From the NCBI GenBank assembly GCA_027624735.1, contig JAQBTY010000001.1:1-50102 (forward strand): 50,102 nt of DNA. The letters are read 5' to 3'. Below are positions 36,070 to 50,102 of the stretch, piece by piece. A program made the position numbers and the translations under genes. How positions within the stretch are numbered: position 1 is the stretch's first letter; every line of letters begins with the position of its first letter. The notes beneath the pieces were generated by a model. That model had not been told where the DNA came from, ran no database searches, and was given only the letters and a program-made list of their open reading frames with translations. The DNA comes from Pseudomonadota bacterium. GTDB lineage: Bacteria > Pseudomonadota > Alphaproteobacteria > MPNO01 > UBA2964.

Positions 36070-36762
36070 ATGTCACAAGATTACATCGATATATCCATCG
36101 CCCTGCTAAGCGCGCTTGCAGCCGGTAGCCTGATCGGGCTCGAGCGCACCTATCATGGCCGACCGGCCGGCTTCCGAACCCATGCGCTCGTCTGTCTCGC
36201 GTCAGCCCTGCTAATGGTGGTGGCGGTCTATCAGCTTCAGTGGTTCGACCAGGGACCGCAGGAGATTATCCGCATCGAGCCAACCCGCATGGCGCAGGGC
36301 ATCATGACCGGCATTGGGTTTCTCGGCGCCGGTGTGATCTTCAAGGAAAAATTGACCGTGCGCGGTCTGACCACCGCGGCCTCGATATGGATCACCGCAT
36401 CGATCGGGATCCTTTATGGCGTGGGATTTTTCTTTCCGGCGCTGATGGGCACCGTGGCGATCCTTGGCGTGCTGGCTGGTTTCCGCTGGTTCGAACGGCG
36501 TATTCCGTCCCAATTTTTCTTCGAGTTCAGTGTCCGTTACCCCAAAGACAAGGTGCCGACCCTGAAAGAGGTACTAACAATTCTGAAGGATCACGGCTTT
36601 ACGGCTTCGGCGGTCAGCTTCAGGCTTGTTGCCGCAGGCACTCAGTTCCAATACGAAACAGTCATCCGCAGCAACAATCTGCCCGCCGCCCAGAAGCTTT
36701 CGGCCGACCTGTTGAAGCTGCCGGATGTCGAAGAATTCAACGTGCTCCCGATGGGAGACTGA
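36070..36762 (+). CDS. MgtC/SapB family membrane protein
   Basis: ORF from GTG at 36031; the first ATG is at 36070. Signature GLERTYHGRPAGFRTHALVCL. Four to five helices plus a C-terminal ACT-like soluble domain. Confidence 0.85.
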   Translation: MSQDYIDISIALLSALAAGSLIGLERTYHGRPAGFRTHALVCLASALLMVVAVYQLQWFDQGPQEIIRIEPTRMAQGIMTGIGFLGAGVIFKEKLTVRGLTTAASIWITASIGILYGVGFFFPALMGTVAILGVLAGFRWFERRIPSQFFFEFSVRYPKDKVPTLKEVLTILKDHGFTASAVSFRLVAAGTQFQYETVIRSNNLPAAQKLSADLLKLPDVEEFNVLPMGD

Positions 36763-37498
36763 TTCTTTTTAAGTTCGCGCCGGCCCGCTCCCCCCTAACG
36801 TCGGGCAAGGTCTTCATCATGCGGCGCACCGCGTCATCGGCGATAGACGCAAACATCTCGGGATCTTTTGTCATGAGGCCCGCGCGCGCGGCGGAAACGG
36901 GCACGTCAATGATCGAGATCGGCAAACCGCCATCTGACCGACCCGCTGCATGGTGCGCCTGCCATAGAATTTCGCCATCGGCGATCCGCCTCATGGTAAG
37001 GCTGACGGTAAGACCGCGCCGGGCCCACAGCACCATATAATCATCCTGCACCTGGGACAGGTGAATTTCGACCAGCGCGCCACAGCGTGCCTCGCGAGCG
37101 AACACCCGGCGGTCCGATACCGCCATAATATCGAGCCCGAGCCTGGCTTCCATACGGCGCAACCGCGCGCCGCCGATTACCCGGGGCAGACGTATCGCCA
37201 GATGTCGCTCCACGGCATCTTCCACGAGCCGGGAGATCGCGCGCGGCGCGGTGGTCTTGGTGACGATCGCGGCGCAAACCGGCGCCTCGGTATAAAACGC
37301 ATTGGCCAGACGGTAATCAACGCGGCGCTCCAGAAACGAGTCCGATTCGGCCTTTGGCGCACCGGTATGATAAGTGGTTTGCAGGCAGCCGCCGCCGAAG
37401 GCCGGAACCAGCAGGACCACGACCCGCAGGAACCCGTCAGGCCACAGGGGGTTGCCTGCCCCTGCCCTAATCACAGCCGGGACCGCGTGCCCGGCCAC
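36737..37498 (-). CDS. cluster gene 15: lipoprotein, unknown function (LpoB/DUF799/TolB-N-like alpha/beta pattern)
   Basis: GTG start at 37498, so the start is uncertain. Lipobox VVLLVPAFGGGC. Pattern of alternating hydrophobic strands and helices ending in ..GEILWQA. The 3' end overlaps the convergent MgtC gene by 26 nt. Confidence 0.65.
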   Translation of the reverse strand: MAGHAVPAVIRAGAGNPLWPDGFLRVVVLLVPAFGGGCLQTTYHTGAPKAESDSFLERRVDYRLANAFYTEAPVCAAIVTKTTAPRAISRLVEDAVERHLAIRLPRVIGGARLRRMEARLGLDIMAVSDRRVFAREARCGALVEIHLSQVQDDYMVLWARRGLTVSLTMRRIADGEILWQAHHAAGRSDGGLPISIIDVPVSAARAGLMTKDPEMFASIADDAVRRMMKTLPDVRGERAGANLKRISLPSGAR

Positions 37499-38468
37499 GG
37501 GGAGGCGGCAGCGCCACCGACCCGGCCAGGGGCCGGCCGTCGACGGTGAAATCGCCTAGAATGAGCCGCGACCGGTCCCAGCGGTAGGCGGCATGGATCA
37601 GTCTGGCTGTTTTGTATTGCGGCCCCAGTACCGCGCCCAGCCCGCCGAGCAAGGCGGCATCCACGTGACGCGGAAAGACCCGGACCGGCCGCCAGTCGGT
37701 CAGGCGATGGCGATCGGCGATGCTCGCGAAAACGCGCGCTTCCTCGGCAATGGCTTCGCCCTGTGGCGAACGGATAAAGCCGCTAAACCGGTCCATGTCG
37801 ATGGGCCAGGTCTCGCCGACCTTGCCCGCGGCGGCAAAGAGCCTTGCGCCCCCGGCCAGCACCGCCGCCTTGACGCCATAGCATTGTGTGAGCTGGCGAT
37901 AGAGCGCGCGCCGCGCGTCGGCCCGTCGCGGCCAGGCGATTTCGATGACCGGACCCTGGCCATGTTCGAGCAGCCGCAGCAGCGCGCCACCAGTTTTCGT
38001 GTTCCGGTCGCCATCCACCATGGCAGTAGCGAACTCCGCCGATGGCTTTCCGGATGGCTTGATTGCCGGCACCGGTTCAAGGGGCTTTATGCTGAGTTTT
38101 ATCGGCGGGACGTTGCTTGTTACAGGAGCCGACACCGGTTTGGCGGCCGTGATCCGCTTCATCGGCAAGATTGGTGCCGGCTGTATCGGCGTAATTTTTA
38201 CCGCGCTACTGGACGATACGGGGGACGATACAGGCGGTGGCGGCAACTGGATCGCCATTGCTGTGGCACCTGATTGCCTGGCGACCGTCGCGGCCACCCG
38301 TTTTTCCGGTCTGGGCCTATCAATTTGAGCGCTTTGATATAGCGCGACCGACGCCAGTACCAACCCGCCGATCAGCAGCACGGATACGGTCAGAGACAGC
38401 CGGTCGGCCGGGCCTGTCGCGCCTGGATCGACCGGCTGAGGCCGATCACTGGTTGATCGACCGGGCAT
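37467..38468 (-). CDS. cluster gene 14: bitopic membrane protein, TM anchor + Pro-rich rod + ~190-aa C-terminal domain (TonB/TolA-like architecture)
   Basis: ATG at 38468. Single TM helix LSLTVSVLLIGGLVLASVALY. About 100 aa Pro/Ser/Val-rich segment (QLPPPPVSSPVSSSS...PLEPVPAIKPSGKP). The globular C-terminus has no recognised motif. Confidence 0.7.
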   Translation of the reverse strand: MPGRSTSDRPQPVDPGATGPADRLSLTVSVLLIGGLVLASVALYQSAQIDRPRPEKRVAATVARQSGATAMAIQLPPPPVSSPVSSSSAVKITPIQPAPILPMKRITAAKPVSAPVTSNVPPIKLSIKPLEPVPAIKPSGKPSAEFATAMVDGDRNTKTGGALLRLLEHGQGPVIEIAWPRRADARRALYRQLTQCYGVKAAVLAGGARLFAAAGKVGETWPIDMDRFSGFIRSPQGEAIAEEARVFASIADRHRLTDWRPVRVFPRHVDAALLGGLGAVLGPQYKTARLIHAAYRWDRSRLILGDFTVDGRPLAGSVALPPPRGRARGPGCD

Positions 38469-39024
38469 ACAGAAGCTCCATCTCTTCAGCCAGCGATAAC
38501 AGTTCCTTGCGCCGTTCCGCGCCCGTCATCAACCGCGTTCCCTCTTTCAGGGCGGGGGCGGCCGGAGCGGCGTCGAGGCCGTCGAGCACTTCCCTGCGCC
38601 GCCTGGCGACGTCCGGCTCGAGAACCTGGGGAGCCCTCTCGATGATGGTCGGCACGGATTTCCGGCTTGTTGCCGAGCCTGTTTCCGGCAACGCCTGGAG
38701 GTCGCTGGCGAGTTGGCGCGACCGGGATGGTTCGGCCAGCGGCTCCGGTCGTGTCACCGTGGCCGGCGTCACAGGCTGCGTTACCGGCTGCGTTACTGGC
38801 AGGGATGGCGCCGTTACTAGCGTCGGTCCGGTCTTGCGCCCGGCCTTCTCCGTTTCGCGTCCAAACATGGACTGGCCGGCGGTGAGCGCCTTGTTCGCAT
38901 AGGATTTCATGTCGCCGGCGGCATCATGAACCTGCCCGGCGATTTTCTGCACTTCACCACGATCGGCGGTAAACAGGAACACCAACGCGGCGGCGACCGC
39001 AACATTGAATAGCAGAAATTTCAT
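38446..39024 (-). CDS. cluster gene 13: N-terminally anchored protein with Pro/Thr-rich repeat linker
   Basis: ATG at 39024 with GGAAGGTG upstream, 1 nt after the stop of the MotA-like gene. Anchor MKFLLFNVAVAAALVFLF. VTQPVTQPVTPATVTRPEP is encoded by a 12-bp tandem repeat at 38774..38797. Confidence 0.7.
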   Translation of the reverse strand: MKFLLFNVAVAAALVFLFTADRGEVQKIAGQVHDAAGDMKSYANKALTAGQSMFGRETEKAGRKTGPTLVTAPSLPVTQPVTQPVTPATVTRPEPLAEPSRSRQLASDLQALPETGSATSRKSVPTIIERAPQVLEPDVARRRREVLDGLDAAPAAPALKEGTRLMTGAERRKELLSLAEEMELLYARSINQ

Positions 39025-39025
39025 G

Positions 39026-39574
39026 TCATTCACCTTCCATCCGGGCCGCGATCGCGTGTCTTCCGGCCATGGTCCGATCAGGGACAACGCTGCGATTGTG
39101 GGCATGGGTAACGACGATCAGGCCGCGCAGGAGCGCCGATACCGGCAGACCGACAACGGTGGTCATGAAGGCGAGGCTGAAATTCGCCGTCATTTTGCGG
39201 ATCACCGGCTGGATGGTTTCGGGCGTCAGTTCCTGACCGGCCAGCGTGCCGATACCAAGGCTGATACCCAGCAACGTGAAGGTCAGCGCTAACGTGGTCA
39301 CCCCGTTGGCGGCCTGAACACCGGCCTCGAACCAGACCTCGTCGCCGGCGCCCTTCATCTGCAGCATGCGCACCCAGCTATAGAGAGCCAGGAACACCAG
39401 GCTGGTCAGCATCACCACGAAAGACCAGCCCAGCACCTCGCGCGCCCAGTTGGCGATGTCCGTAACGCTATGGGAGGTCATGAGCACCGCCACCGCCAAG
39501 GCGATGGCGAGCCCACCCATCAGGTAGCTTACCGCGCGCGACGAGCTATGGAGGGTACCGAGCAGGGCACGCAT
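39026..39574 (-). CDS. cluster gene 12: short MotA/TolQ/ExbB-family proton-channel-like protein
   Basis: GGGAGG Shine-Dalgarno. Four predicted TM helices. The last two read FTLLGISLGIGTL ... FSLAFMTTVVGLPVSALL. This parallels the ExbB/TolQ/MotA core (IGLFGTVWGI ... ALLATAIGLVAAIPAVV). Confidence 0.65.
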   Translation of the reverse strand: MRALLGTLHSSSRAVSYLMGGLAIALAVAVLMTSHSVTDIANWAREVLGWSFVVMLTSLVFLALYSWVRMLQMKGAGDEVWFEAGVQAANGVTTLALTFTLLGISLGIGTLAGQELTPETIQPVIRKMTANFSLAFMTTVVGLPVSALLRGLIVVTHAHNRSVVPDRTMAGRHAIAARMEGE

Positions 39575-39575
39575 C

Positions 39576-39968
39576 CTACCGCCTCCCTACACGCGCGTTC
39601 ATCAGGCTCTCGGTCGACACGCCAACCTGCTGAAGCCAGTGATCCATCAGCGTGCGATTATGTTCGGTCGACGCATGCACCAGAAACGTCAAATCGTAAT
39701 TCTCATAGGCCGCGCGCACCGCGGGCGTGCTCTTACCAACCAGCGATTTGTCTCGCAGAACCAGACGCTCCAGATCGATCAGGCGGTTACGGGACATTTC
39801 GACCTTGGCCTGGCGCCTTTCCGGGGTGAGTTCGGAGGTGAGCATTGACTCCAGCATCAGGGCCCGCTCGCGTTCCATGTTTTCGAGCGATCCGGCGTGG
39901 CTGGGGACGCTGATCCCAGCCGCCAATACCAGGACAGCGGCGGCGATGAATCGATTGGAAGTTCTCAT
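39576..39968 (-). CDS. cluster gene 11: small exported helical protein, unknown function
   Basis: GGAGGA Shine-Dalgarno. Signal peptide MRTSNRFIAAAVLVLAAGISVPSHAG. 130 aa. The stop lies 1 nt from the next start. Confidence 0.7.
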   Translation of the reverse strand: MRTSNRFIAAAVLVLAAGISVPSHAGSLENMERERALMLESMLTSELTPERRQAKVEMSRNRLIDLERLVLRDKSLVGKSTPAVRAAYENYDLTFLVHASTEHNRTLMDHWLQQVGVSTESLMNARVGRR

Positions 39969-39995
39969 GATCTAATCCTCCGGTTTCGGTGAGCG

Positions 39996-40886
39996 TTATC
40001 GGTTGACAAAAAATTCGACGGCGTCGGTGACGCCCTTGTCCGCCGTCTGGGTTTCGGCCCCGGCGATATCGCCGCCATTGACGGTTTCGGACAAGGCCAT
40101 GGCATCCAGCGCCACCAGCTTGGCCATGTAGCCAAGAATCGACTGTTCCTGATCGATCACGGCGATGGTGGCTTCGTTTTCGCCGATCAGCTGGCGCAGA
40201 AAATCCTCCCGCGACACGGTCGCGCCATCGACTTTCGGCTGTTCGTTCATCGGGTGAGCGTTGACCGCCTGAACCAGCTGTTCGATGGCGGCGACGTTTT
40301 TGGCATATTCCCGGGCATATTTGCTTTCGGTCATCAGCGACGACCGGAACAGCTTTGCATCGACCTTGGCGATGGTATTTTCGAACCGGTCACGCGCCGC
40401 TGTCTGCTTGTCGATCAAGGCGGCACGTTGCGGCGTCAGGCCGGTGTTCTTTTGCTTTATCTTGCCGAGCAAATTTCCATAAACATGGATTTTGGTGCGC
40501 GCATGTTTACGGCGCAGCGACTGGTGATCGGCGACGAGATCCAGATAGGCACGTTTTTCCGCAAGAAACTGGTGCCTGAGTTCGACCCGCAGATCGCCTT
40601 CGGCCTGTTCCATGGCGCCGCGCAAATCTTCCAGCGTCCTGACCTTGAGGCTCATTTTTTCTTCAGTATCTCTGACCGCCGCAGCCAACGACGATTTTGC
40701 GTAATCCTGTTCGATGGCCTTTTTGAGGAAATTCGCCGGCAGCTTGATCAGACGTTCGCTGGCCCGGGGCGACCAATTCGCCTCTTCCGCCGAGGCACGT
40801 GCGTCAGTCATGGGTCCCGCGATCAGGGAAGCCGCGATAACGCAGGCAGACAGGCCGGCTACGGAAATCGGTCTAAATATGTTCAT
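39996..40886 (-). CDS. cluster gene 10: exported coiled-coil-rich protein, unknown function
   Basis: AGGAGA Shine-Dalgarno. Signal peptide MNIFRPISVAGLSACVIAASLIAGPMTDARA. Long charged heptad-like helices (EEKMSLKVRTLEDLRGAMEQAEGDLRVELRHQFLAEKRAYLD). Confidence 0.7.
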   Translation of the reverse strand: MNIFRPISVAGLSACVIAASLIAGPMTDARASAEEANWSPRASERLIKLPANFLKKAIEQDYAKSSLAAAVRDTEEKMSLKVRTLEDLRGAMEQAEGDLRVELRHQFLAEKRAYLDLVADHQSLRRKHARTKIHVYGNLLGKIKQKNTGLTPQRAALIDKQTAARDRFENTIAKVDAKLFRSSLMTESKYAREYAKNVAAIEQLVQAVNAHPMNEQPKVDGATVSREDFLRQLIGENEATIAVIDQEQSILGYMAKLVALDAMALSETVNGGDIAGAETQTADKGVTDAVEFFVNR

Positions 40887-40917
40887 CGCTTGCTCTCCTG
40901 AATGGGGCGCTCCACCC

Positions 40918-41493
40918 TTACTTGTTCTTCCAATAGAGAACGCGCCGCATTTCGCTTTTCAGACCGTCGTTGATGTTCAACGCGGAAAATTCACCGAAAG
41001 TCCAACGCTCGCGCTGACCGAGCAGCGCTTCCATGGTGGTCACGAAGGACGTGCCGTCGGGATAGTAGAAATCATAGTCGGCGAACCGGTTCTTGAATTT
41101 TCCGAAATTATCGCGGGCCTTTTCCACATTTCCGCCCTTGAAGAAATTCTGGACCGAGAGCGCATAGGCCCGCATGCGTTCGTCGCGGGCGATACCGGCT
41201 GCGTCCGGACCAAGGCCGGTTTCACATTTTTCAAGCACTTGGGCGCTCGCCAGGTAGGTGCCGCTTGTCCCGGACGAGCGTGCCTGGCGGTCGAGTTCAA
41301 CACCCTGATCGCGGCAGGCCCTGTAGTCGCGCATAATGGATATCTGTTCGAAACGCGCCTCGCGGTAACCGATCCCTTCCAGAGGGCCGTTGACATCGCT
41401 GGTGCAAGCCGACAAAGCCACCGTGGCCAGCGCGGCAAAAACAGTGCGCCGAAGGGCGGGTAACAATTTAACGGGATTCCGGAATGCCAACAT
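40918..41493 (-). CDS. cluster gene 9: lipoprotein, unknown function
   Basis: Internal ATG at 41493 (MLAFRNPVKLLPALRRTVFAALATVALSAC) gives a signal peptide with an LSAC lipobox. The rest is helical. A 123-nt gap lies upstream. Confidence 0.7.
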   Translation of the reverse strand: MLAFRNPVKLLPALRRTVFAALATVALSACTSDVNGPLEGIGYREARFEQISIMRDYRACRDQGVELDRQARSSGTSGTYLASAQVLEKCETGLGPDAAGIARDERMRAYALSVQNFFKGGNVEKARDNFGKFKNRFADYDFYYPDGTSFVTTMEALLGQRERWTFGEFSALNINDGLKSEMRRVLYWKNK

Positions 41494-41616
41494 GGTTAGG
41501 TCCTTTTCTGATCGTGTCGAGCCCAAGTTCCTTGGGGGTTACGGGGGTTAGGGAAGGATCAGAGGCGTTTTCCCTCTGTATCGCCACAAGTGCAGCCAAA
41601 ATTTGTCCAAAACTGT

Positions 41617-42918
41617 TCATGGCCTGAAATCATTGGTCAGGCGCAAAACCGCCACGCCGTGACCGCGCGCTTCGGCCAGAATACGGTCGACATCCTGCGC
41701 GGATGCAGCGTTCCGCGCCCGCCGCCATACCCCGCCCAGACCGGCAAAATCGGCTACCACACCGGCTTGCACCGACAGAACAACCAGGTCCTGGCGTAGC
41801 GGCGCGATAAGGCGGCTGGGCGGCCTTGCGTCGAGGTCGATCGTCGCCCGGGGCGCGAGGGTCTTTTCGGCATAAATCGTGCGCAGGCGGAAACCGGCGC
41901 CGTTGGCGTTTTCACGGAGCGCCATCACCCAGAGCGTCGCTGCCCTGTCCGACCCGTTGGTCAGGCGATAGTGGAAATCACACAGGCCGGCGACACGCAA
42001 ACCGGCTGCCGGGGCACCTTCGATCACCGGTTGCCTTGTAATCAGGGGCGCAACCCGGTCGAGATGAACCGCAGCGCAGGGCGCGTCCGCGGGCGCCTGG
42101 GTCGCCACGGAAATCGCCGCCAGCGTCGATGCCGGATGGGGCCGCAATGACGCCGGCACAAGACGCACCGCTTGGGCTTTCGCGACACCCAGATCCGGCT
42201 CCAGCCCCAATTTCTGCCACCCGGCAAGAACGGTGATCGCCAACAGCACACATGAGGCGGCATAGGCCAGGTGTCGCGGCATCTTCCTGTGGCCGCCAAT
42301 CATGGACGGCGTGCGAGCCAGCCATTGCCGGATCCGGCGGCGACGTTTCAGACCCAGCACCGCCAAAACATCGCATACTGTCTGTGCCGCGACGATGTGC
42401 AGCCGGTCACAGTCTCCGGCGAAGACATCCTCCAGCGCCTGTGTCGCTTCGATCAAATTGCCGGCGGGAACCGCCATAACGACTCGCGCGCCCGCATCGA
42501 GATGGGCTCTGATCCGGCCTTCCGATTGACGGATCTTGCGATCGACATCTTCCACCGTATCGACCGTCAGATCGCGCGTAACTTCGCCCGTGGCCCAGAC
42601 AATTTGTGGAGTTTTATCATCGGACCGGACCAGCCGGCCTTCTTCGAACAGCGCATGGGCGATGAACAGACCGAGCTGCCAGCTCAGGCCGCTGGCGATG
42701 GGGTTGCTGATATCGACGCGATAGGCGCTATGCCCGAAACAGGCTTCGATGACACCGGTGGGACGGCGCACGAAGGAATCGTAATCCGCGCTAATGGGGA
42801 GCTCGATCGCCTTCCCGTCGTGACAAACGACCGAGCGCACATCGGAATCCTCAGGCGTTATACGCTGAATTTCGGAGGGACCCTCGGTGGTCGCGATATA
42901 GATGGCGGTACGTTTCAT
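41617..42918 (-). CDS. cluster gene 8: bitopic inner-membrane protein with cytoplasmic Lon(S16)-protease-like domain and periplasmic C-terminal domain
   Basis: The ATG overlaps the upstream stop (ATGA). SGLSWQLGLFIAHAL and IVWATGEVTRDLTVDTVEDVDRKIRQSEGRIRAHLDAGARVVMAVPAGN parallel Lon DGPSAGIAM..AL and [24 protein letters not shown].RGG...VLIP..N. An Arg-rich stretch is followed by the TM helix LAYAASCVLLAITVLAGW. Confidence 0.55.
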   Translation of the reverse strand: MKRTAIYIATTEGPSEIQRITPEDSDVRSVVCHDGKAIELPISADYDSFVRRPTGVIEACFGHSAYRVDISNPIASGLSWQLGLFIAHALFEEGRLVRSDDKTPQIVWATGEVTRDLTVDTVEDVDRKIRQSEGRIRAHLDAGARVVMAVPAGNLIEATQALEDVFAGDCDRLHIVAAQTVCDVLAVLGLKRRRRIRQWLARTPSMIGGHRKMPRHLAYAASCVLLAITVLAGWQKLGLEPDLGVAKAQAVRLVPASLRPHPASTLAAISVATQAPADAPCAAVHLDRVAPLITRQPVIEGAPAAGLRVAGLCDFHYRLTNGSDRAATLWVMALRENANGAGFRLRTIYAEKTLAPRATIDLDARPPSRLIAPLRQDLVVLSVQAGVVADFAGLGGVWRRARNAASAQDVDRILAEARGHGVAVLRLTNDFRP

Positions 42919-43463
42919 CGCAGGAACACATCCGTCTTGGGATTGCAGAGCGCGCCGACGAGATCAGACCCGGTATCGAGGAGAAGCTGGATCACCCCGC
43001 CTATGGGCTTCGGCAAGGGAACCTTGCGGCAGCCGTCTCCGTCTCCAATGACAAAAAGCGTGCCCGGCGCCGGGATGGCGGTGTTGGCCAGTTTGATGAT
43101 CAGATAAAGCTGATCCGGGTCGGCCCGTGATTCACGCAGAGAAATTTCGAAACCGGAACCACTCCGCGTGGTCACCGTCCCACTGCTGGCGGCGGCGCGG
43201 CTCACCGGCCGATAGGGCGCGACCCGGGCCAGAAGACAGCGCAAATCCTCCCGCGCGCGCGCGTCGGTCGCAAGCGCTCGGGCCAGATCGGTGCTTGGGG
43301 TTACAGCCGGGTCGGTGGCGTAGCGGTAGATATCGTGAAAACTGACCACAGGCTTCATGGTGGCATGATCGCGGGCAGTCAGGCCGTCGAGCGATTCACG
43401 CGCGATGAAGATCGCCTCGGATAGTGAATGGGCTTCCTGCCAGCTAGCTGGGATTTCACTCAT
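42915..43463 (-). CDS. cluster gene 7: cytoplasmic hypothetical protein (182 aa)
   Basis: ATGA overlaps at both ends (43460-43463 and 42915-42918). No TM helix, signal peptide or recognised motif. Confidence 0.7.
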   Translation of the reverse strand: MSEIPASWQEAHSLSEAIFIARESLDGLTARDHATMKPVVSFHDIYRYATDPAVTPSTDLARALATDARAREDLRCLLARVAPYRPVSRAAASSGTVTTRSGSGFEISLRESRADPDQLYLIIKLANTAIPAPGTLFVIGDGDGCRKVPLPKPIGGVIQLLLDTGSDLVGALCNPKTDVFLR

Positions 43464-45175
43464 CGATGGTCTCCGTACAGGGCGCGAAACTGCGCGAAAA
43501 AAATGTCGTAGTCCGACAAATATTGCTTAGTCCACCCACCCTGACGCCGACCCAGACGCTGCACGCGGGCGGTAAATTTCAGCAAGGAATTTCTGATCAT
43601 GATCAGCGCATCGGACGCCGCGGCGCAGGCATCCGCGCGATCGGAGGCGGCGTAGCCGGCATCGGGCCAATCGGCATCCTTGAAGCCCTTGCGGGTCGTG
43701 CGCTTTGCCGCGCCGCCGGATTCTTCGATCATCGCCGCCAGTTCGGGGCACTTATCCAGCCCGGCGGTCAGCGTGCGCATGAACCGATCATCGGTGTCAG
43801 GCGTCTTCAGACGAACGATCTGGCCGGTACAAACTGTCTCAGCATGGTCATCCCGGTCTTCAAAAACAGACGCGAGCGGCGACAGATCAATGTGCGGCCG
43901 CAGATACAGCAGCACCGTAATGGCTTCTTCACGGCGCGCGGCCACCAGGTGATGGAACGAAGCAAGCAAGGCCGTTTGAAGATTGTCACCTATTTGATCG
44001 ATATAGTCGGCGAAGTCACCATAGGCGCTGGTCACATTGTTGAGTTTATCCAGATACGGCAGCCGGAGGGTATCCTCGCCGCGGCGCAGGGCTTCCGTCA
44101 GCCGCGCCTGCTGCGCCCCCATCACCTGAAGGCGCAGGATTGAGAGCGGCAGGGCAAGGGCGGAACCGCCATATTCGATGAGGGGCGCGATGGCATCGGT
44201 TTCGGTCTGTTTCAGAAACTTGACGCCATTGGCCGGCGCCGCCCGCAACACATCCAGCGGCGCCTGACGTTCGTGGATGGGTCCCAGCGCCGCATCGACC
44301 GCCTCGGGCGTGATGTCAGCGGGATCGATTTCACCGGCGTCCCGGTCGGTGCCGATGGAGCGCGCACGACCAAGGGCGCGTGCCTGTGCCGCCGCCGCCA
44401 GCGCATCGCGCGCCGCCGCCATCAGGCGGAAGACCGATTTAAACGATTTGAAATCGCCCCCCGCCCCGCTGGCGCACCGAGCCTCGTTTGAGGCGGCAAT
44501 CCAGAAGGCCAAGACCGCCTCGTCGTCGATGCTGTGAGGGCCCACCTCGCCATTATCGGAAAGCCGCAAGAACGACATGACCGCGCGGAATTTGCGATGC
44601 GACTGCGCGCTCGGCAAATGCGCCGACAGGTAATGATAGACCCGGCGGGCAAGATCATTGGCCAGCGCATCGACGGCTCCCTTGGTCGCCTGACCCGCCG
44701 GCACGGCGCGAAACTGCGCATCGAGGTCGGCATAGCCGAAGACCGATACGAGGAATTCCATCAGGGCCGACAGAAACGGCATCCGCGTATAGGCGATCCC
44801 GAAAACGCCATCGGCATAGTTCACACGGATACCGGCGCCAAGCCGCTCAACGCCATCAGCGCCGGTCCGATTCTGAAAAATCGACCGAAAGGCGGCGGCG
44901 CGGGCGATGCCGCTGCCCCAGAAAACCAGCTCGTATCCCTGGGCGCGGGCGTTAGCCCCGATCACCCGGTCCGACGCGACGATCAGATGGCACAGCTCAC
45001 GCAGCGGCCCGCCATAGCTCCGGCACACGATCCAGCGGACCAGACGGCGGCACATTGCGGCGGAGAATTTAGGCGCATCGGCGGCGGTAATGTGGGCGAT
45101 CGACCGCAGGATGGCGGCCAGTTCGTCACTGACGTCGCCGCCAGCCATTCCTTCAAGCGGGGGCAGGCTGTCCAT
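43460..45175 (-). CDS. cluster gene 6: large cytoplasmic hypothetical protein (571 aa)
   Basis: AGGTG lies upstream of the ATG at 45175, 1 nt after the stop of the SLT gene. Mostly helical composition. No Walker A, TM helix or signal peptide seen. Confidence 0.7.
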   Translation of the reverse strand: MDSLPPLEGMAGGDVSDELAAILRSIAHITAADAPKFSAAMCRRLVRWIVCRSYGGPLRELCHLIVASDRVIGANARAQGYELVFWGSGIARAAAFRSIFQNRTGADGVERLGAGIRVNYADGVFGIAYTRMPFLSALMEFLVSVFGYADLDAQFRAVPAGQATKGAVDALANDLARRVYHYLSAHLPSAQSHRKFRAVMSFLRLSDNGEVGPHSIDDEAVLAFWIAASNEARCASGAGGDFKSFKSVFRLMAAARDALAAAAQARALGRARSIGTDRDAGEIDPADITPEAVDAALGPIHERQAPLDVLRAAPANGVKFLKQTETDAIAPLIEYGGSALALPLSILRLQVMGAQQARLTEALRRGEDTLRLPYLDKLNNVTSAYGDFADYIDQIGDNLQTALLASFHHLVAARREEAITVLLYLRPHIDLSPLASVFEDRDDHAETVCTGQIVRLKTPDTDDRFMRTLTAGLDKCPELAAMIEESGGAAKRTTRKGFKDADWPDAGYAASDRADACAAASDALIMIRNSLLKFTARVQRLGRRQGGWTKQYLSDYDIFFAQFRALYGDHR

Positions 45176-45176
45176 G

Positions 45177-45725
45177 TCACACCTGCCCGCGAAGAAGTTG
45201 TTTACGATAGTGCCGGCGCAGACGCTTTACCCTGGCCACATAGCGCGCGGTTGCCGGTATGACCCGGGCATTGGCCCAGGCGCCGACCGCGGACCCGCCA
45301 TTGTAATGGGACAGCGCCAGATCGACCCGGCCGCCATAACGGCGGATCAGACGTTTCAGAAAATGCAGCCCGAGGCGGATATTCAGTCTCGGTCGCCAAA
45401 GTAATTTCGGCTCTATCCCGTATTCGCCCCGCGCGGTCATTGGCATGATCTGCATGACGCCGCGGGCGCCTTTGGCGCTCCGCGCCTTGGGATTGAAGTT
45501 GGATTCCACGTGCGCCACGGCAAGCGCGAGGGAGATGGGAACCCGCAACCGCTCCGCTTCCTGGATCACCAGCCGCTTGACCTCATGGCGCGCAACGGGC
45601 CGGTTTTGATTGGCATCGGCGACCGTACCGCACCCGGCAACAAACAGCGCACAGACCAAGACAATTGTCACAGCCGACCCAATACCGCGTCGGCAGGCGG
45701 GCTGGGAATGCACCCTATAACGCAT
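45177..45725 (-). CDS. cluster gene 5: lytic transglycosylase (SLT domain) lipoprotein
   Basis: ATG at 45725 (MRYRVHSQ..) with AGGAGA upstream. Lipobox LFVAGC. SLT catalytic motif AVAHVESNFNP and GARGVMQIMP, then HYNGG. Confidence 0.85.
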   Translation of the reverse strand: MRYRVHSQPACRRGIGSAVTIVLVCALFVAGCGTVADANQNRPVARHEVKRLVIQEAERLRVPISLALAVAHVESNFNPKARSAKGARGVMQIMPMTARGEYGIEPKLLWRPRLNIRLGLHFLKRLIRRYGGRVDLALSHYNGGSAVGAWANARVIPATARYVARVKRLRRHYRKQLLRGQV

Positions 45726-46161
45726 TCTTCTTCTCCTGCAGGGCGCGACGCCAGTTGCCGTCAAGCGTGGTGATAACCAGCCGGCTTGCCGCGATCTTGC
45801 GCCGTGCTTCAATGGCCTGCGCCATGGACAGGTCCGGTGTAACGGCGAGCACTACCCGTTTGGTATCGTCAATGGTGGCCAGGTCGAATGGTTTGAGATC
45901 GCGGCCAAAAAAACGGCTGCCATCGAAGACCACCAGCACGTCTTTGTTGGTCAGCTTGTCGACCGAACCGGTGGCGCGCGCCGGACCGCTATCGGCGATG
46001 ACGGCCGAAATCATCGCCCGGTCCGGCCTTTGAGGTTGCGATTTGGCCGCCGGAACACTGACGCCCATGGACATGGCGGTCAGCACCATGACGCTGAAGA
46101 AACCCATCGCCATCGCCAGCGCGATCTCGGTCATCGCATTTTCTTGTGCACCGCCACTCAT
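45715..46161 (-). CDS. cluster gene 4: ExbD/TolR-like bitopic protein (Glu in TM helix)
   Basis: GGAGGGA Shine-Dalgarno 4 nt upstream. TM helix MTEIALAMAMGFFSVMVLTAM carries an acidic residue near the cytoplasmic end. The periplasmic part VLVVFDGSRFFG...KRVVLAVTPDLSMAQAIEARRKIAASRLVITTL parallels ExbD VYLSVKADNSMFIG...TTIFFRGDKTVDYETLMKVMDTL..AGYLKIGLV. Confidence 0.6.
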   Translation of the reverse strand: MSGGAQENAMTEIALAMAMGFFSVMVLTAMSMGVSVPAAKSQPQRPDRAMISAVIADSGPARATGSVDKLTNKDVLVVFDGSRFFGRDLKPFDLATIDDTKRVVLAVTPDLSMAQAIEARRKIAASRLVITTLDGNWRRALQEKKNAL

Positions 46162-46229
46162 CGTTCCCTCCGCTCGCTGTTCAGGACGTCTTTCCCGGCA
46201 CCCTTGCGTACCCTCACCCCTGCCTATCC

Positions 46230-47066
46230 CTAAGGAAGGACCAGGGCGGTTTTACCTTCCTGGCGCAGGCTGGCGCGCAATTCATGGATCAGCCGGCGGG
46301 TCATGCGGCCCGTCGCGACCTGTCCGAAATCATGCTGATAGGTGCGGATCGCGCGGCGCAGACTTGGGCGCATCAGCCCATCTTGCGGGCCGGGATCATA
46401 GTCAAGGCGCGCCAGCAATTGCTGCGCCAGCAACACCGGGCGCCGGGCGCCGGCGGCCAATTGCGCCGGCGGTCCTTGGCGCCCTTTCCCGGTTACAGCA
46501 ACGCCTGGCTCAGTCAGCCAGATCTGGCGCGGCCGGGTCGCGGCAAAGACAATGCCGTCTTCGACGCTCACCGCCTTGTAGGAAATGGAAACCGCCTGAC
46601 CGTCTTTGCGCAGCGCCCCGACGATCAGGATGTCGACCTTGGCATTGCGCAGCAGATCGACGACCCGACTGTTGGCGGGTGATTCAAGCTCTTCAATGGT
46701 ATCGAGCTCACGGATAATTTCGCGCAGCGTCTCGCGGGCAACGAACCGGTAGGTTCCGCTGCCACGGCGCGTCAGCTCGGCCAGCAGCCGTGTATTGAAT
46801 TCGCTCGCCACCGACGGCGGTATGGTCTTTTCGGTATCCTTGAACGGCGCTACCGCGATACGCGGCTTGCCGTAGCCGCCGATCGCCGGAATATCCGCGA
46901 CACTGGCCGAGCCGATACCGGCCAACAATTCTTCGGCAAAAGACGCAAACTGGCTTTGCGCGGTACCTTGCGCGAAGGCCGGTCCCATAAGACCAATCGA
47001 CAAGGCGGCGGCGGTAAAGCCAGCCCATCGCGACAGAGGTTGGAATATTTTATTGCATGCAATCAT
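46230..47066 (-). CDS. cluster gene 3: exported protein with FlgO/TolB-N-like module and C-terminal peptidoglycan-binding domain (PG_binding_1)
   Basis: ATG at 47066 gives signal peptide ..FTAAALSIGLMGPAFAQG. PRIAVAPFKDTEK...VDILIVGAL pattern. C-terminus LLARLDYDPGPQDGLMRPSLRRAIRTYQHDFGQVATG matches the PG_binding_1 consensus. Confidence 0.75.
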   Translation of the reverse strand: MIACNKIFQPLSRWAGFTAAALSIGLMGPAFAQGTAQSQFASFAEELLAGIGSASVADIPAIGGYGKPRIAVAPFKDTEKTIPPSVASEFNTRLLAELTRRGSGTYRFVARETLREIIRELDTIEELESPANSRVVDLLRNAKVDILIVGALRKDGQAVSISYKAVSVEDGIVFAATRPRQIWLTEPGVAVTGKGRQGPPAQLAAGARRPVLLAQQLLARLDYDPGPQDGLMRPSLRRAIRTYQHDFGQVATGRMTRRLIHELRASLRQEGKTALVLP

Positions 47067-47091
47067 GGTTCGGCCCCCATATTTTTTCGGT

Positions 47092-47910
47092 TTACCAATC
47101 CCGCGAGTCGGTGGCGGGTTGTGCCGTCGGATCTGCTTCAACGACGTAAGTATTTCCGGTTCGCGCGATGCGCGCCGTGAGCTGCAAATGATGCAGCATC
47201 TTCCTGAGCGAGAGCTCGGTCCCGTCTGCCGTACCATCCTGGCTGAGACGATAGAGAACCCCTTCACTGGCCGTGTAGTCGCGCCGGATCCGTGTCACAC
47301 CCGGGAAATTACGGAGATAGAGTTCGATCCGCGGCAACAGGGAGGGATCGATGCGCCGAAACGCCACGCTGATCTGGGTCGGGTCAGCCGTGGCAACGTG
47401 GCGATCGCGGCCAAGCCTTACCAGGCGCCGGTCCACATCCGCCGCGAGGCGCGCCACCAGCGGCGTAACCCGGCGTTGGATTTCCTGGTCGATACAGGAT
47501 TGCGGGCAGTGCGCCGCAAGGCGCCACGACGTACCCGGCCCAGTATCAAACCGCGCCAGAATGCGCTTGGTATCCCCGTCGATCAGAGTCGCTCGCAGCT
47601 CGATTGTGGCGTGAGACGTATAGGCGCCTTGAAGGATCCGGCGTTCGGTGGCTACCCGTAGAATTGTCGCACCGGGTGCGGATGTCCTCACGCCCCCATC
47701 GAGCACCGCATAGCCGCGCCGGCCGAGGGCCGCCATGATGAGACGACGCACCCTTCTGTCGGTTGCGGCGTTTTGCCCGTCGCCGGCCTCCTGGGTAACG
47801 ACCAGCTCTGTCTTGACTAATTGGTCCGCCTGGACGGCCGCAGGGGTGAGAAAGGGCACGGCAAGGGCCAGTAGTGCCCCAGCCGCGGCGACAGGCCTGA
47901 TCATCGCCAT
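47092..47910 (-). CDS. cluster gene 2: exported hypothetical protein
   Basis: ATG at 47910 (MAMIRPVAAAGALLALAVPFLTPAAVQA) with AAGGGGGG upstream. No recognised motif. Confidence 0.65.
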   Translation of the reverse strand: MAMIRPVAAAGALLALAVPFLTPAAVQADQLVKTELVVTQEAGDGQNAATDRRVRRLIMAALGRRGYAVLDGGVRTSAPGATILRVATERRILQGAYTSHATIELRATLIDGDTKRILARFDTGPGTSWRLAAHCPQSCIDQEIQRRVTPLVARLAADVDRRLVRLGRDRHVATADPTQISVAFRRIDPSLLPRIELYLRNFPGVTRIRRDYTASEGVLYRLSQDGTADGTELSLRKMLHHLQLTARIARTGNTYVVEADPTAQPATDSRDW

Positions 47911-47951
47911 GCCCCCCTTCCACTCCCACGGGTAACGTCGCAGTGCCATGC

Positions 47952-48635
47952 TCAACTTGCCTTGCGCCAGGTGCCGTCGCTGGCGCGGCAGGCGGTGCCG
48001 TGCAGCTCTTCCTCATACCCATCGATCCAGCCCCAGGACTTGAAGTCGCGGCAGTACTGCCCGTTTTCACGCTGATAGGTGCGAGTCGGGGTAACAGTGT
48101 AGTCCGCGCCCGTACCGGGGTTGGTCCAGGTCACCCGCTGGCCGGATTTCGCGGTCTCCAGCGCATTGTGCGTGTGAAGCCGGTCGGCCCGGTCCATCGA
48201 ATCGCCGATGCTGCCGCCGATGATGGCGCCGAGGACACCGCCCACAAGGATCGCGGGACCCCGGCCGCGGCCGCGGACGATCGCGTTACCGGTCAGCCCG
48301 CCGAGCACGGCGCCGATGACGCTGCCGGCGACGGCGTTGTTGCCACGGCGGTAGGTCGGCTGGGTCACGACGGTATTGCGATGAACGACCCGCGTGTGAT
48401 GGTGGTGGACGACCCGCGTGCGAACCGGACGGTGTATCCAGCGGCGGTCCCGGCGATAACGGGCACGGGATTCACGGGGCTGCACATAGACAACTTTCTT
48501 AACCACTTTCACGACCCTCGGGCCATCATGGCGCTGATGCCTCTTCCAGCCATCGGCATGGGCCGGCGCCGCGGCCAGCGTAACAAGAGAGATCCCGGCA
48601 AGGCCAAACAGGGTATTTCTGGTGTATGTCAACAT
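47952..48635 (-). CDS. cluster gene 1: glycine-zipper / 17-kDa surface antigen family outer-membrane protein
   Basis: Signal peptide LFGLAGISLVTLAAAPAHA. Glycine zipper AVAGSVIGAVLGGLTGNAIV..GGVLGAIIGGSIG. C-terminal surface-antigen pattern NALE..SGQ.V.W.NP.TG...V.P...Y...G.YCR.F......G.....GTACR..DGTW. Confidence 0.8.
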   Translation of the reverse strand: MLTYTRNTLFGLAGISLVTLAAAPAHADGWKRHQRHDGPRVVKVVKKVVYVQPRESRARYRRDRRWIHRPVRTRVVHHHHTRVVHRNTVVTQPTYRRGNNAVAGSVIGAVLGGLTGNAIVRGRGRGPAILVGGVLGAIIGGSIGDSMDRADRLHTHNALETAKSGQRVTWTNPGTGADYTVTPTRTYQRENGQYCRDFKSWGWIDGYEEELHGTACRASDGTWRKAS

Positions 48636-48694
48636 TGTCCAACTCCGTTGTAGGTTTGAAACAAGGCGACTATGACAAAATTCAACTGAGCCGA

Positions 48695-48763
48695 ACCTGA
48701 ACGGCCCGTTCAGGTGAGGTTCAGGAATCGTTCATCGCAGGTTCAGCCAGGATCAGGCATAAT
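48695..48763. promoter_or_regulatory. candidate response-regulator operator: four 11-bp-phased GTTCA(G/T) direct repeats, a 10-bp inverted repeat and a -10-like CATAAT
   Basis: GTTCAG at 48708, 48719 and 48741, and GTTCAT at 48730, with exact 11-bp spacing. ACCTGAACGG (48695..48704) pairs with CCGTTCAGGT (48706..48715). CATAAT at 48758..48763 lies 6 nt before the ATG at 48770. The region is the divergent intergenic gap between the cluster and the PepSY/OmpR operon. Confidence 0.45.
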
Positions 48764-48769
48764 GAGCCC

Positions 48770-49318
48770 ATGAAAATGCGTTCCAGACGGAGGTTGGCGA
48801 AACCCTTGTTGGCGGCACTGTGCATGCTGTGGTTTGGCGCGGCTGACCCCGCGCCCGTGGCTGCTTTTGGCGCCGAACCGGCTGCTGCCAAGGGTCGCTT
48901 CAAGCCGGCAATCGAGTTGGCCCAAAATGATATCTGGGTGCAGTTTTTCGAACAGAACCGCAGCCGCAGCCGCCGAAATCAACGCCGCAAAGGTGACCTC
49001 GTTCCCCTGCGGACCGATCCGGGCGAACAGCAGCCGCTTATGCCGGAATTTCGGCGACCGGACCGCAACCGCGACCAGAAACAACGCGAGGAACAGGACG
49101 CCGCCCGCGAGGCTGTACGCCGTGGAGACATCCTGCCGCTCGGCGGTATTATAGAGTCGGTGCAGAGCCAATGCCCCGGCAAGTTTCTCGGCGCCAAGCT
49201 GCAGCGCGGTGGGGACGGATTTTCGTACCGGGTGCGGATTTTGCGACCGTCGGGGCGGCGCGTCGGGCTGACGGTCGATGCGAAAACAGGGGCTGTGGTC
49301 GGCGATGGATGCAGATAA
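48770..49318 (+). CDS. PepSY domain-containing exported protein
   Basis: Signal-like N-terminus RRRLAKPLLAALCMLWFGAA. C-terminus AREAVRRGDILPLGGIIESVQSQCPGKFLGAKLQRGGDGFSYRVRILRPSGRRVGLTVDAKTGAVV matches the PepSY pattern. A PepSY gene upstream of an OmpR/HK pair is a common arrangement. Confidence 0.75.
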   Translation: MKMRSRRRLAKPLLAALCMLWFGAADPAPVAAFGAEPAAAKGRFKPAIELAQNDIWVQFFEQNRSRSRRNQRRKGDLVPLRTDPGEQQPLMPEFRRPDRNRDQKQREEQDAAREAVRRGDILPLGGIIESVQSQCPGKFLGAKLQRGGDGFSYRVRILRPSGRRVGLTVDAKTGAVVGDGCR

Positions 49319-49358: not shown

Positions 49359-50039
49359 ATGCGTATTCTGGTAGTGGAAGACGATCGCGATCTCAGCCGT
49401 CAGTTGGGCGCCGCCCTGACCGAAGCCAACTATGCGGTGGATTTCGCCTATGACGGCGAGGAAGGCCATTATCTCGGCGAGGGTGAGACTTATGATGCGA
49501 TCATCCTCGATCTCGGCCTGCCCACCATCGACGGCGTCACCGTGCTCAAGCGCTGGCGCGACGCCGGGCTCAACATGCCCGTCCTCATTCTGACGGCACG
49601 GGACGGCTGGTCGGAAAAAGTAGCGGGTTTTGATGCCGGCGCGGACGATTACGTCACCAAGCCCTTCCGCGTCGAAGAAGTGCTCGCCCGGCTGCGCGCC
49701 CTGATCCGCCGCGCCGCGGGCCATGCCTCGGCCGAGCTTGACTGTAACGGCGTCAGGCTCGACACACGGAATGGCCGGGTCAGTGTCGATGGCGCCCCGG
49801 TAAAGCTGACCGCCCACGAGTTCAAGGTGCTGTCTTACCTGATGCACCACCGCGACGAGGTGGTATCCCGCACGGAACTGACCGAACATATTTACGAACA
49901 GGATTTCGACAAAGATTCGAATACGATAGAGGTTTTTGTCGGCCGCCTCCGCAAGAAAATCCGCAGCGATCTGATCGAAACCGTGCGCGGGCTCGGCTAC
50001 CGGCTGGTCGATACGAGCAAGTCCGGTCCGGGTCGCTAG
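49359..50039 (+). CDS. OmpR/PhoB-family response regulator
   Basis: MRILVVEDD, phospho-acceptor context AIILDLGLP, and TKPF. C-terminal winged-helix (LTAHEFKVLSYLM...IEVFVGRLRKKI...TVRGLGYRL). Confidence 0.9.
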   Translation: MRILVVEDDRDLSRQLGAALTEANYAVDFAYDGEEGHYLGEGETYDAIILDLGLPTIDGVTVLKRWRDAGLNMPVLILTARDGWSEKVAGFDAGADDYVTKPFRVEEVLARLRALIRRAAGHASAELDCNGVRLDTRNGRVSVDGAPVKLTAHEFKVLSYLMHHRDEVVSRTELTEHIYEQDFDKDSNTIEVFVGRLRKKIRSDLIETVRGLGYRLVDTSKSGPGR

Positions 50040-50102
50040 TGTTGCGATTCCAACGCTTGTTTCCCACGGTTGACCTTTTCGATGATGGAACTGGCTGAAG
50101 CT

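Follow-up and report, generated by a model that had tools for sequence, protein, structure and literature searches.

Two candidate operators of a FeuP-like OmpR/PhoB regulator, fused in phase between a PepSY operon and a divergent lipoprotein gene

Which protein, if any, reads a short array of GTTCA-type repeats with exact 11-bp phasing in the 134-bp region between two divergent genes, and which of these genes does it serve? An initial annotation had assigned the repeats to the adjacent OmpR-family regulator, as an autoregulatory operator that could also govern a 15-gene cluster on the other side. We addressed this question in the stretch of 50,102 nucleotides that carries the array (hereafter the window) and makes up all of contig C93 in an assembly of 515 contigs and 4.42 Mb. 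The explanation that we favour, and hold to be quite probable, is that the region contains two phase-fused operators of the adjacent FeuP-like OmpR/PhoB regulator, which would activate both the PepSY operon and the divergent lipoprotein gene.

The genes that flank the array are the following.

47952–48635, minus strand: gene for a glycine-zipper/17-kDa-surface-antigen lipoprotein (Pfam 17kDa_Anti_2 and glycine-zipper families)
48770–49318, plus strand: open reading frame for a small secreted PepSY-like protein of 182 aa (20.9 bits for PepSY, against a cut-off of 24)
49359–50039, plus strand: gene for an OmpR/PhoB-family response regulator (Pfam Response_reg and Trans_reg_C), the presumed box binder

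The Parvibaculum orthologue of the PepSY protein reaches 26.5 bits, over the 24-bit Pfam cut-off. The best NCBIfam matches of the regulator are PmrA, PhoP and QseB, every one far under its equivalog cut-off, and against the PhoB equivalog it scores 179.8 bits with a cut-off of 296.2; a homologue search gave only generic names among at least 7987 proteins at E ≤ 1e-60. The protein is homologous to solved structures of the OmpR family and is a winged-helix protein of the ordinary OmpR/PhoB type. The contig breaks off 63 nt past its gene (50040–50102), and the cognate PhoQ-like kinase, 82% identical to the kinase of the related locus L038, is found at the end of contig C249 (3791–5188). The gene order is thus PepSY-regulator-(kinase on C249), with the box in front.

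Read directly on the plus strand, GTTCAG occurs at 48708, 48719 and 48741 and GTTCAT at 48730. On the minus strand a further GCTCAG (48691–48686) extends the same phase, and altogether six hexamers stand in exact 11-bp register: those at 48686 and 48697 on the minus strand, those at 48708, 48719, 48730 and 48741 on the plus strand. The elements of the region can be listed as follows, those named operators, promoters and −10 hexamers being predictions.

48669–48674, minus strand: predicted −10 hexamer CATAGT of the lipoprotein promoter, 11 nt past the box end
48686–48724: putative lipoprotein operator, a four-hexamer unit that faces the divergent lipoprotein gene
48686–48702, minus strand: promoter-proximal lipoprotein box, GTTCAG-gttcg-GCTCAG, 21.6 bits in the weight matrix described below (genome rank 3)
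48708–48724, plus strand: distal pair of the lipoprotein operator, GTTCAG-gtgag-GTTCAG, inverted relative to the lipoprotein promoter
48730–48746, plus strand: putative PepSY operator, the two-hexamer box GTTCATcgcagGTTCAG (GTTCAT-cgcag-GTTCAG) of the PepSY-regulator-kinase promoter, with CATAAT 11 nt and the PepSY ATG 24 nt downstream; loci L038, L041, L042 and L043 share this 17-mer with the window without a mismatch
48751–48756, plus strand: GATCAG, at a 10-nt and not an 11-nt offset, within the spacer between the box and the −10 hexamer
48758–48763, plus strand: predicted −10 hexamer CATAAT of the PepSY promoter, matching the consensus; six nt separate it from the ATG at 48770

The layout is the same in both directions. 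On the minus strand it runs GTTCAG (48702–48697)-N5-GCTCAG (48691–48686)-N11-CATAGT (48674–48669), and on the plus strand GTTCAT (48730)-N5-GTTCAG (48741)-N11-CATAAT (48758). The perfect inverted repeat ACCTGAACGG-c-CCGTTCAGGT at 48695–48715, formed by the distal pair together with the hexamer at 48697–48702, is the junction of two boxes of opposite orientation. The repeats, the inverted repeat, CATAAT and the missing Shine-Dalgarno had all been located correctly by the initial annotation. Its reading of four direct repeats and an inverted repeat as a single operator has to be revised, since in loci L042 and L043 the four-hexamer unit and the two-hexamer box lie apart and thus appear to be separate operators. 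On this comparison the array is two operators of four and two hexamers fused in phase, not one operator of four repeats; the "four direct repeats" correspond to the distal pair of the predicted lipoprotein operator plus the box of the predicted PepSY operator. GATCAG at 48751, described earlier as a degenerate fifth repeat, is kept in L038 and L041 and absent from L042 and L043, so that its conservation stops at the closest relatives; with its 10-nt offset it is probably not a half-site. The inverted boxes also produce an artefactual terminator-like hairpin at 48707–48688, a place where no gene ends. The Rfam search of 48500–48900 returned no RNA family.

A chance origin of the repeats is excluded: GTTCAK-N5-GTTCAK has three overlapping matches in the window against 0.04 expected, and none of 100 shuffles reached three. 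The sole other exact match in the 4.42-Mb assembly, C467:5720, lies inside a long glnE-like open reading frame. A weight matrix made from the orthologous boxes and run over the whole assembly ranked the three window sites at the top, with 22.8, 22.5 and 21.6 bits; the next site, ATTCAGGCCACGCTCAG (C82:2661, minus strand, 20.2 bits), falls inside a bactofilin-like coding sequence and is probably a chance match. By exact pattern and by matrix, the window sites are unique among the intergenic regions of this genome, the additional best matches being intragenic. The idea that the motif might recur upstream of other genes thus found no further intergenic site in the organism's own assembly.

For the comparison with other species, loci were gathered through the PepSY protein and through the regulator, as stretches of 5 kb. 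Of 24 alphaproteobacterial loci, 23 have the pattern [AG]TTCA-N6-G[TC]TCA immediately before the PepSY gene, among them loci of genus g7, Parvibaculum, Phenylobacterium, Sphingobium and Pseudoroseomonas (regulator identity 59–80% in these five); elsewhere in the same stretches the pattern is almost absent. The recognition helix DSNTIEVFVGRLRKK is near-invariant and kept in all box-bearing loci; the sole locus without a box, L017, encodes a regulator that is only 51% identical and has a different recognition helix. Counted from the box end, an in-frame ATG comes at 24–26 nt in every lineage but genus g7: 24 nt in the genus of the window, L042, L043 and Pseudoroseomonas (Sphingobium also offers an ATG at 24 nt), 25 nt in Parvibaculum and L028, and 26 nt in Phenylobacterium. 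The comparison of orthologous intergenic regions proposed for this locus therefore came out in favour of the operator, with word, spacing and start-codon distance conserved across lineages.

Genus g7 (L002–L005, L012–L015) is the exception, because it keeps GGCATAAT-N6-ATG with no recognisable adjoining box, the nearest box ending 82 nt before the ATG. The proximal box is thus not universal; in this genus either it was lost, or PepSY transcription starts from the upstream box and the mRNA has a long leader. Within the genus of the window, 3 of 36 hexamer positions differ between the window and L038, against 17 of 76 positions elsewhere (one-sided p = 0.056), a marginal difference that is suggestive of selection on the hexamers.

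The lipoprotein operator can be followed in the same way. The unit [inverted pair]-N5-[RTTCAG-N5-sbTCAG]-N11-(−10-like hexamer) precedes the glycine-zipper gene in the window, L038, L041, L042, L043 and g7. Parvibaculum has it as well, ahead of a glycine-zipper gene that lies downstream of the kinase and is not divergent. Its promoter-proximal part, RTTCAG-N5-sbTCAG with N11 and a −10-like hexamer, is found in L038, L042, L043, g7 and Parvibaculum, and the arrangement [TGAAC]-N5-[RTTCAK-N5-GTTCAG] is preserved in g7, L042, L043 and Parvibaculum. In the window and its closest relatives, L038 and L041 (regulators 92–93% identical to that of the window), the two operators abut in phase and the intergenic length is identical; the four-hexamer unit and the two-hexamer box are about 50 nt apart in L042 and about 110 nt apart in L043. 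Between the two in L043 (1800–1930; also in L044) we observed a GC-rich palindrome of about 70 nt, ctcctgccctctcccccacccgacc...ggtcgggtgggggagagggcagg, which looks like a REP/MITE-like element.

The lipoprotein gene and its own box thus stay with the two-component system through three gene orders: the gene is divergent and backed by the cluster in the window, L042, L043 and g7, divergent but free of the cluster in L038 and L041, and placed downstream of the kinase in Parvibaculum. This supports the glycine-zipper lipoprotein gene as a conserved predicted target of the regulator. As to positional orthology, in Parvibaculum we found no ccm/cycHJKL neighbours beside the two-component system.

No sigma-70 −35/−10 consensus pair was detected in the divergent region, as expected for activator-dependent promoters. 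The spacing from box to −10 hexamer is 11 nt on both strands of the window and 10–11 nt in relatives. The equivalents of the PepSY −10 hexamer, each followed by six nt and the ATG, are CATAAT in L038 and g7, CATGAT in L042 and CATTAT in L043; those of the lipoprotein promoter are CATAAT (L038), TTAAAT (L042), TTCAAT (L043), TCTACT (g7) and TATCTT (Parvibaculum). These hexamers are only consensus-like, and those of Parvibaculum, TTAGGA/TTAGGT, are weak. There is no room for a Shine-Dalgarno between CATAAT and the ATG at 48770, and the PepSY transcript is possibly leaderless, with its start at the first base of this ATG. The predicted lipoprotein start, near 48662, would give a leader of about 27 nt, and the Shine-Dalgarno GGAG of this gene is the complement of 48644–48647.

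A separate sigma-70-like site, TGGAGA/GAGACA-N16-18-TATTAT, falls within the PepSY reading frame at 49123–49152, some 200 nt ahead of the regulator gene, and could serve the regulator-kinase pair as an internal basal promoter; the feuP gene of A. tumefaciens has its own transcription start site.

Class II activation by regulators of this family is established for PhoB of E. coli: the direct repeats of the pho box recur once per helical turn, take the place of the −35 element some 10 bp before the −10 hexamer, and are bound by a head-to-tail winged-helix dimer. The window boxes have the same phasing and the same position relative to the −10 hexamer, but the pho box word is of the CTGTCAT type and that of the window is GTTCAG. 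Three features of class II activation are found together here, namely 11-bp direct repeats, a box in the −35 place and a winged-helix regulator encoded nearby, the −10 hexamers being predicted.

The closest likeness is with FeuP. In the start-site atlas of S. meliloti, Motif 3 (TTCA-N7-TTCA) is a candidate FeuP site, predicted rather than footprinted (Schlueter et al. 2013, PMC3616915). Its Table S17 lists 16-mers such as TTCATTTGCCATTCAG (feuN) and TTCAGGCTCCGTTCAG, which end 23–25 nt before the start sites mapped for FeuP-dependent genes, and opposite-strand copies at −47 for SMc02389 and SMc01557 (PMC3616915). The window word G-TTCA-G-N5-G-TTCA-G is equally TTCA-N7-TTCA, in the same 11-bp phase. 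The end of its PepSY box (48746) plus 24 nt gives the A of the predicted leaderless ATG, which would fit the published geometry if transcription starts there, and the outer end of the distal pair is 47 nt from the predicted start near 48662, comparable to the inverted copies at −47. In both systems the regulator-kinase pair is preceded by a gene for a small secreted protein, and it is this gene that carries the box. There are also differences: feuN has a leader of 28 nt and the PepSY gene is predicted to be leaderless, and unlike in FeuNPQ the window has a divergent lipoprotein gene whose operator is phase-fused to the autoregulatory box. The likeness is one of box and gene layout. In A. tumefaciens the order is Atu8142 (small hypothetical protein)-feuP-feuQ-lipA (surface protein), and lipA, like the Parvibaculum glycine-zipper gene downstream of the kinase, is a surface-protein gene beside the system.

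Other modules share single traits with the window. The PHO boxes of Streptomyces coelicolor PhoP are built of 11-nt direct repeat units around a GTTCAY core, and complex operators with as many as six such units are bound cooperatively (PMC2275107). Their hexamer is nearly that of the window, with the same period and complex operators, but they belong to an actinobacterial phosphate regulon, have one orientation only and no PepSY partner, and the kinship of the regulators is at family level only. In DbfQ-DbfR-DbfS of Vibrio cholerae and BqsP/Q-BqsR-BqsS of Pseudomonas aeruginosa, too, an OmpR-type regulator and a kinase come with a small PepSY protein of the periplasm; the gene order and targets of these modules differ. 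BqsR binds the tandem repeat TTAAG-N6-TTAAG, overlapping the RNA polymerase site (PMC4358008); the word of the window is a different one, GTTCAG. The PepSY gene occupies the same position as feuN and dbfQ. DbfQ restrains DbfS, positive autoregulation of dbfQRS has been suggested, and FeuN is reported to restrain FeuQ.

The proposal that the array serves the adjacent OmpR-family regulator as its operator, in an autoregulatory circuit with a possibly leaderless PepSY transcript, thus gains support from the 23 of 24 loci, from the 24–26 nt to the ATG (except in g7) and from the match with the FeuP box. Binding by this regulator, activation in preference to repression, and the start sites are predicted from the sequence, and the most likely overall mode would be class II activation of the pho-box type. 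A head-to-tail regulator dimer on GTTCAT-N5-GTTCAG (48730–48746) would substitute for the −35 element, 11 nt upstream of CATAAT, and recruit RNA polymerase to a leaderless transcript from the A of the ATG (48770). Activation from this box would produce positive autoregulation of the PepSY-regulator-kinase operon and, should the PepSY protein hold back the kinase in the manner of FeuN and DbfQ, negative feedback as well. On the other side, a second dimer would occupy the minus-strand box (48702–48686), 11 nt upstream of CATAGT, and a third the inverted distal pair (48708–48724); together they would drive the glycine-zipper lipoprotein gene, with a start near 48662.

The same regulator might instead act mainly as a repressor or roadblock, for instance when unphosphorylated, with the in-phase array of six sites coating both core promoters. 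The six contiguous sites do cover both −35 regions, Streptomyces PhoP is documented to spread cooperatively over complex operators of many repeats, and genus g7 retains CATAAT-N6-ATG without a proximal box, so that basal transcription may not need the box. However, the box stops 24 nt short of the predicted start, which is its place in the FeuP-activated genes of S. meliloti; a −35 element that RNA polymerase could use alone is absent; and the separation of the operators in L042 and L043 argues that coating is not the conserved mode. We consider this arrangement unlikely. We give somewhat less credit still to another DNA-binding protein, either a paralogous regulator of the OmpR family or a dimer reading the palindrome CTGAAC-N5-GTTCAG, the linkage to the two-component system being then merely positional. 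The size of the regulator family (the 7987 or more proteins noted above) leaves room for such a protein, and the central inverted repeat is kept in the window, L038, L042, L043, g7 and Parvibaculum. Yet the flanking hexamers in 11-bp phase are as conserved as the palindrome, and a non-palindromic direct-repeat box stands before the PepSY-regulator-kinase operon in lineages that have other upstream neighbours and no palindrome; moreover, the only locus with a divergent recognition helix is also the one without a box.

Local duplication or slippage, leaving repeats without a function, is a very improbable origin of the array. The fused operators of the window do resemble a tandem 11-bp repeat, but the spacers between the hexamers differ, which argues against a simple tandem duplication, the word, spacing and start-codon distance are conserved while the intergenic regions are otherwise dissimilar by eye, and the array fits a published motif that was derived independently. 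We thus retain the two phase-fused, activating operators of the adjacent regulator as the preferred explanation. The feature is real and conserved, and by analogy its mechanism is a conventional, textbook one, a FeuP-type box in an OmpR/PhoB operator.

The last part of the question concerns the cluster. Past the lipoprotein gene there are 14 more minus-strand genes. No terminator-like site occurs until this block ends, so that transcription of the lipoprotein gene may read through into these 14 envelope genes. In L038, L039 and L041 a convergent MgtC gene comes right after the glycine-zipper gene (L038:491–1679), and the MgtC homologue of the window (36304–36759) lies just beyond the end of the cluster; genes 2–15 thus correspond to an insertion or deletion of about 11 kb (36304–47955 of the window). 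The cluster genes are retained behind the lipoprotein gene in L042, L043 and g7, and the 571-aa protein of the cluster is absent from Parvibaculum and Phenylobacterium. The gene neighbourhoods indicate that the lipoprotein gene goes with the two-component system and not with the cluster. The earlier suggestion that the system may control all 15 genes is consequently supported for the first of them, the lipoprotein gene, which has its own box in the three arrangements. As the other 14 are absent in the closest relatives, their control is possible and not intrinsic: read-through is plausible in the genome of the window and does not appear to be a conserved property of the regulon.

A bolder and doubtful extension, which we put forward only tentatively, is that in this lineage a FeuPQ-like envelope-stress system captured the 14 genes, an unannotated Ton/Tol-like and Lon-like envelope cluster, and that three dimers would bind cooperatively to the fused six-site array and switch on the sensor operon and the envelope machine together. 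It is in keeping with the placement of the cluster directly behind the lipoprotein gene that the regulator is predicted to control, without a terminator between.

These results offer a testable model of operator and promoter for the PepSY-regulator-kinase system of several alphaproteobacterial lineages (at least 23 box-bearing loci), and to Sinorhizobium, as carriers of the so far predicted FeuP box, they add marine Rhodospirillales-like bacteria, Parvibaculum, Phenylobacterium and Sphingobium. They also identify a glycine-zipper surface lipoprotein as a conserved predicted target, and the inducing signal of the sensor could be a handle for expressing the uncharacterised 14-gene envelope cluster. 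As a minor observation on that cluster, a homologue of its 571-aa protein in a complete genome (G010:C1:3297660–3299293) is broken by two in-frame stops, one TGA and one TAG, and may be a pseudogene.
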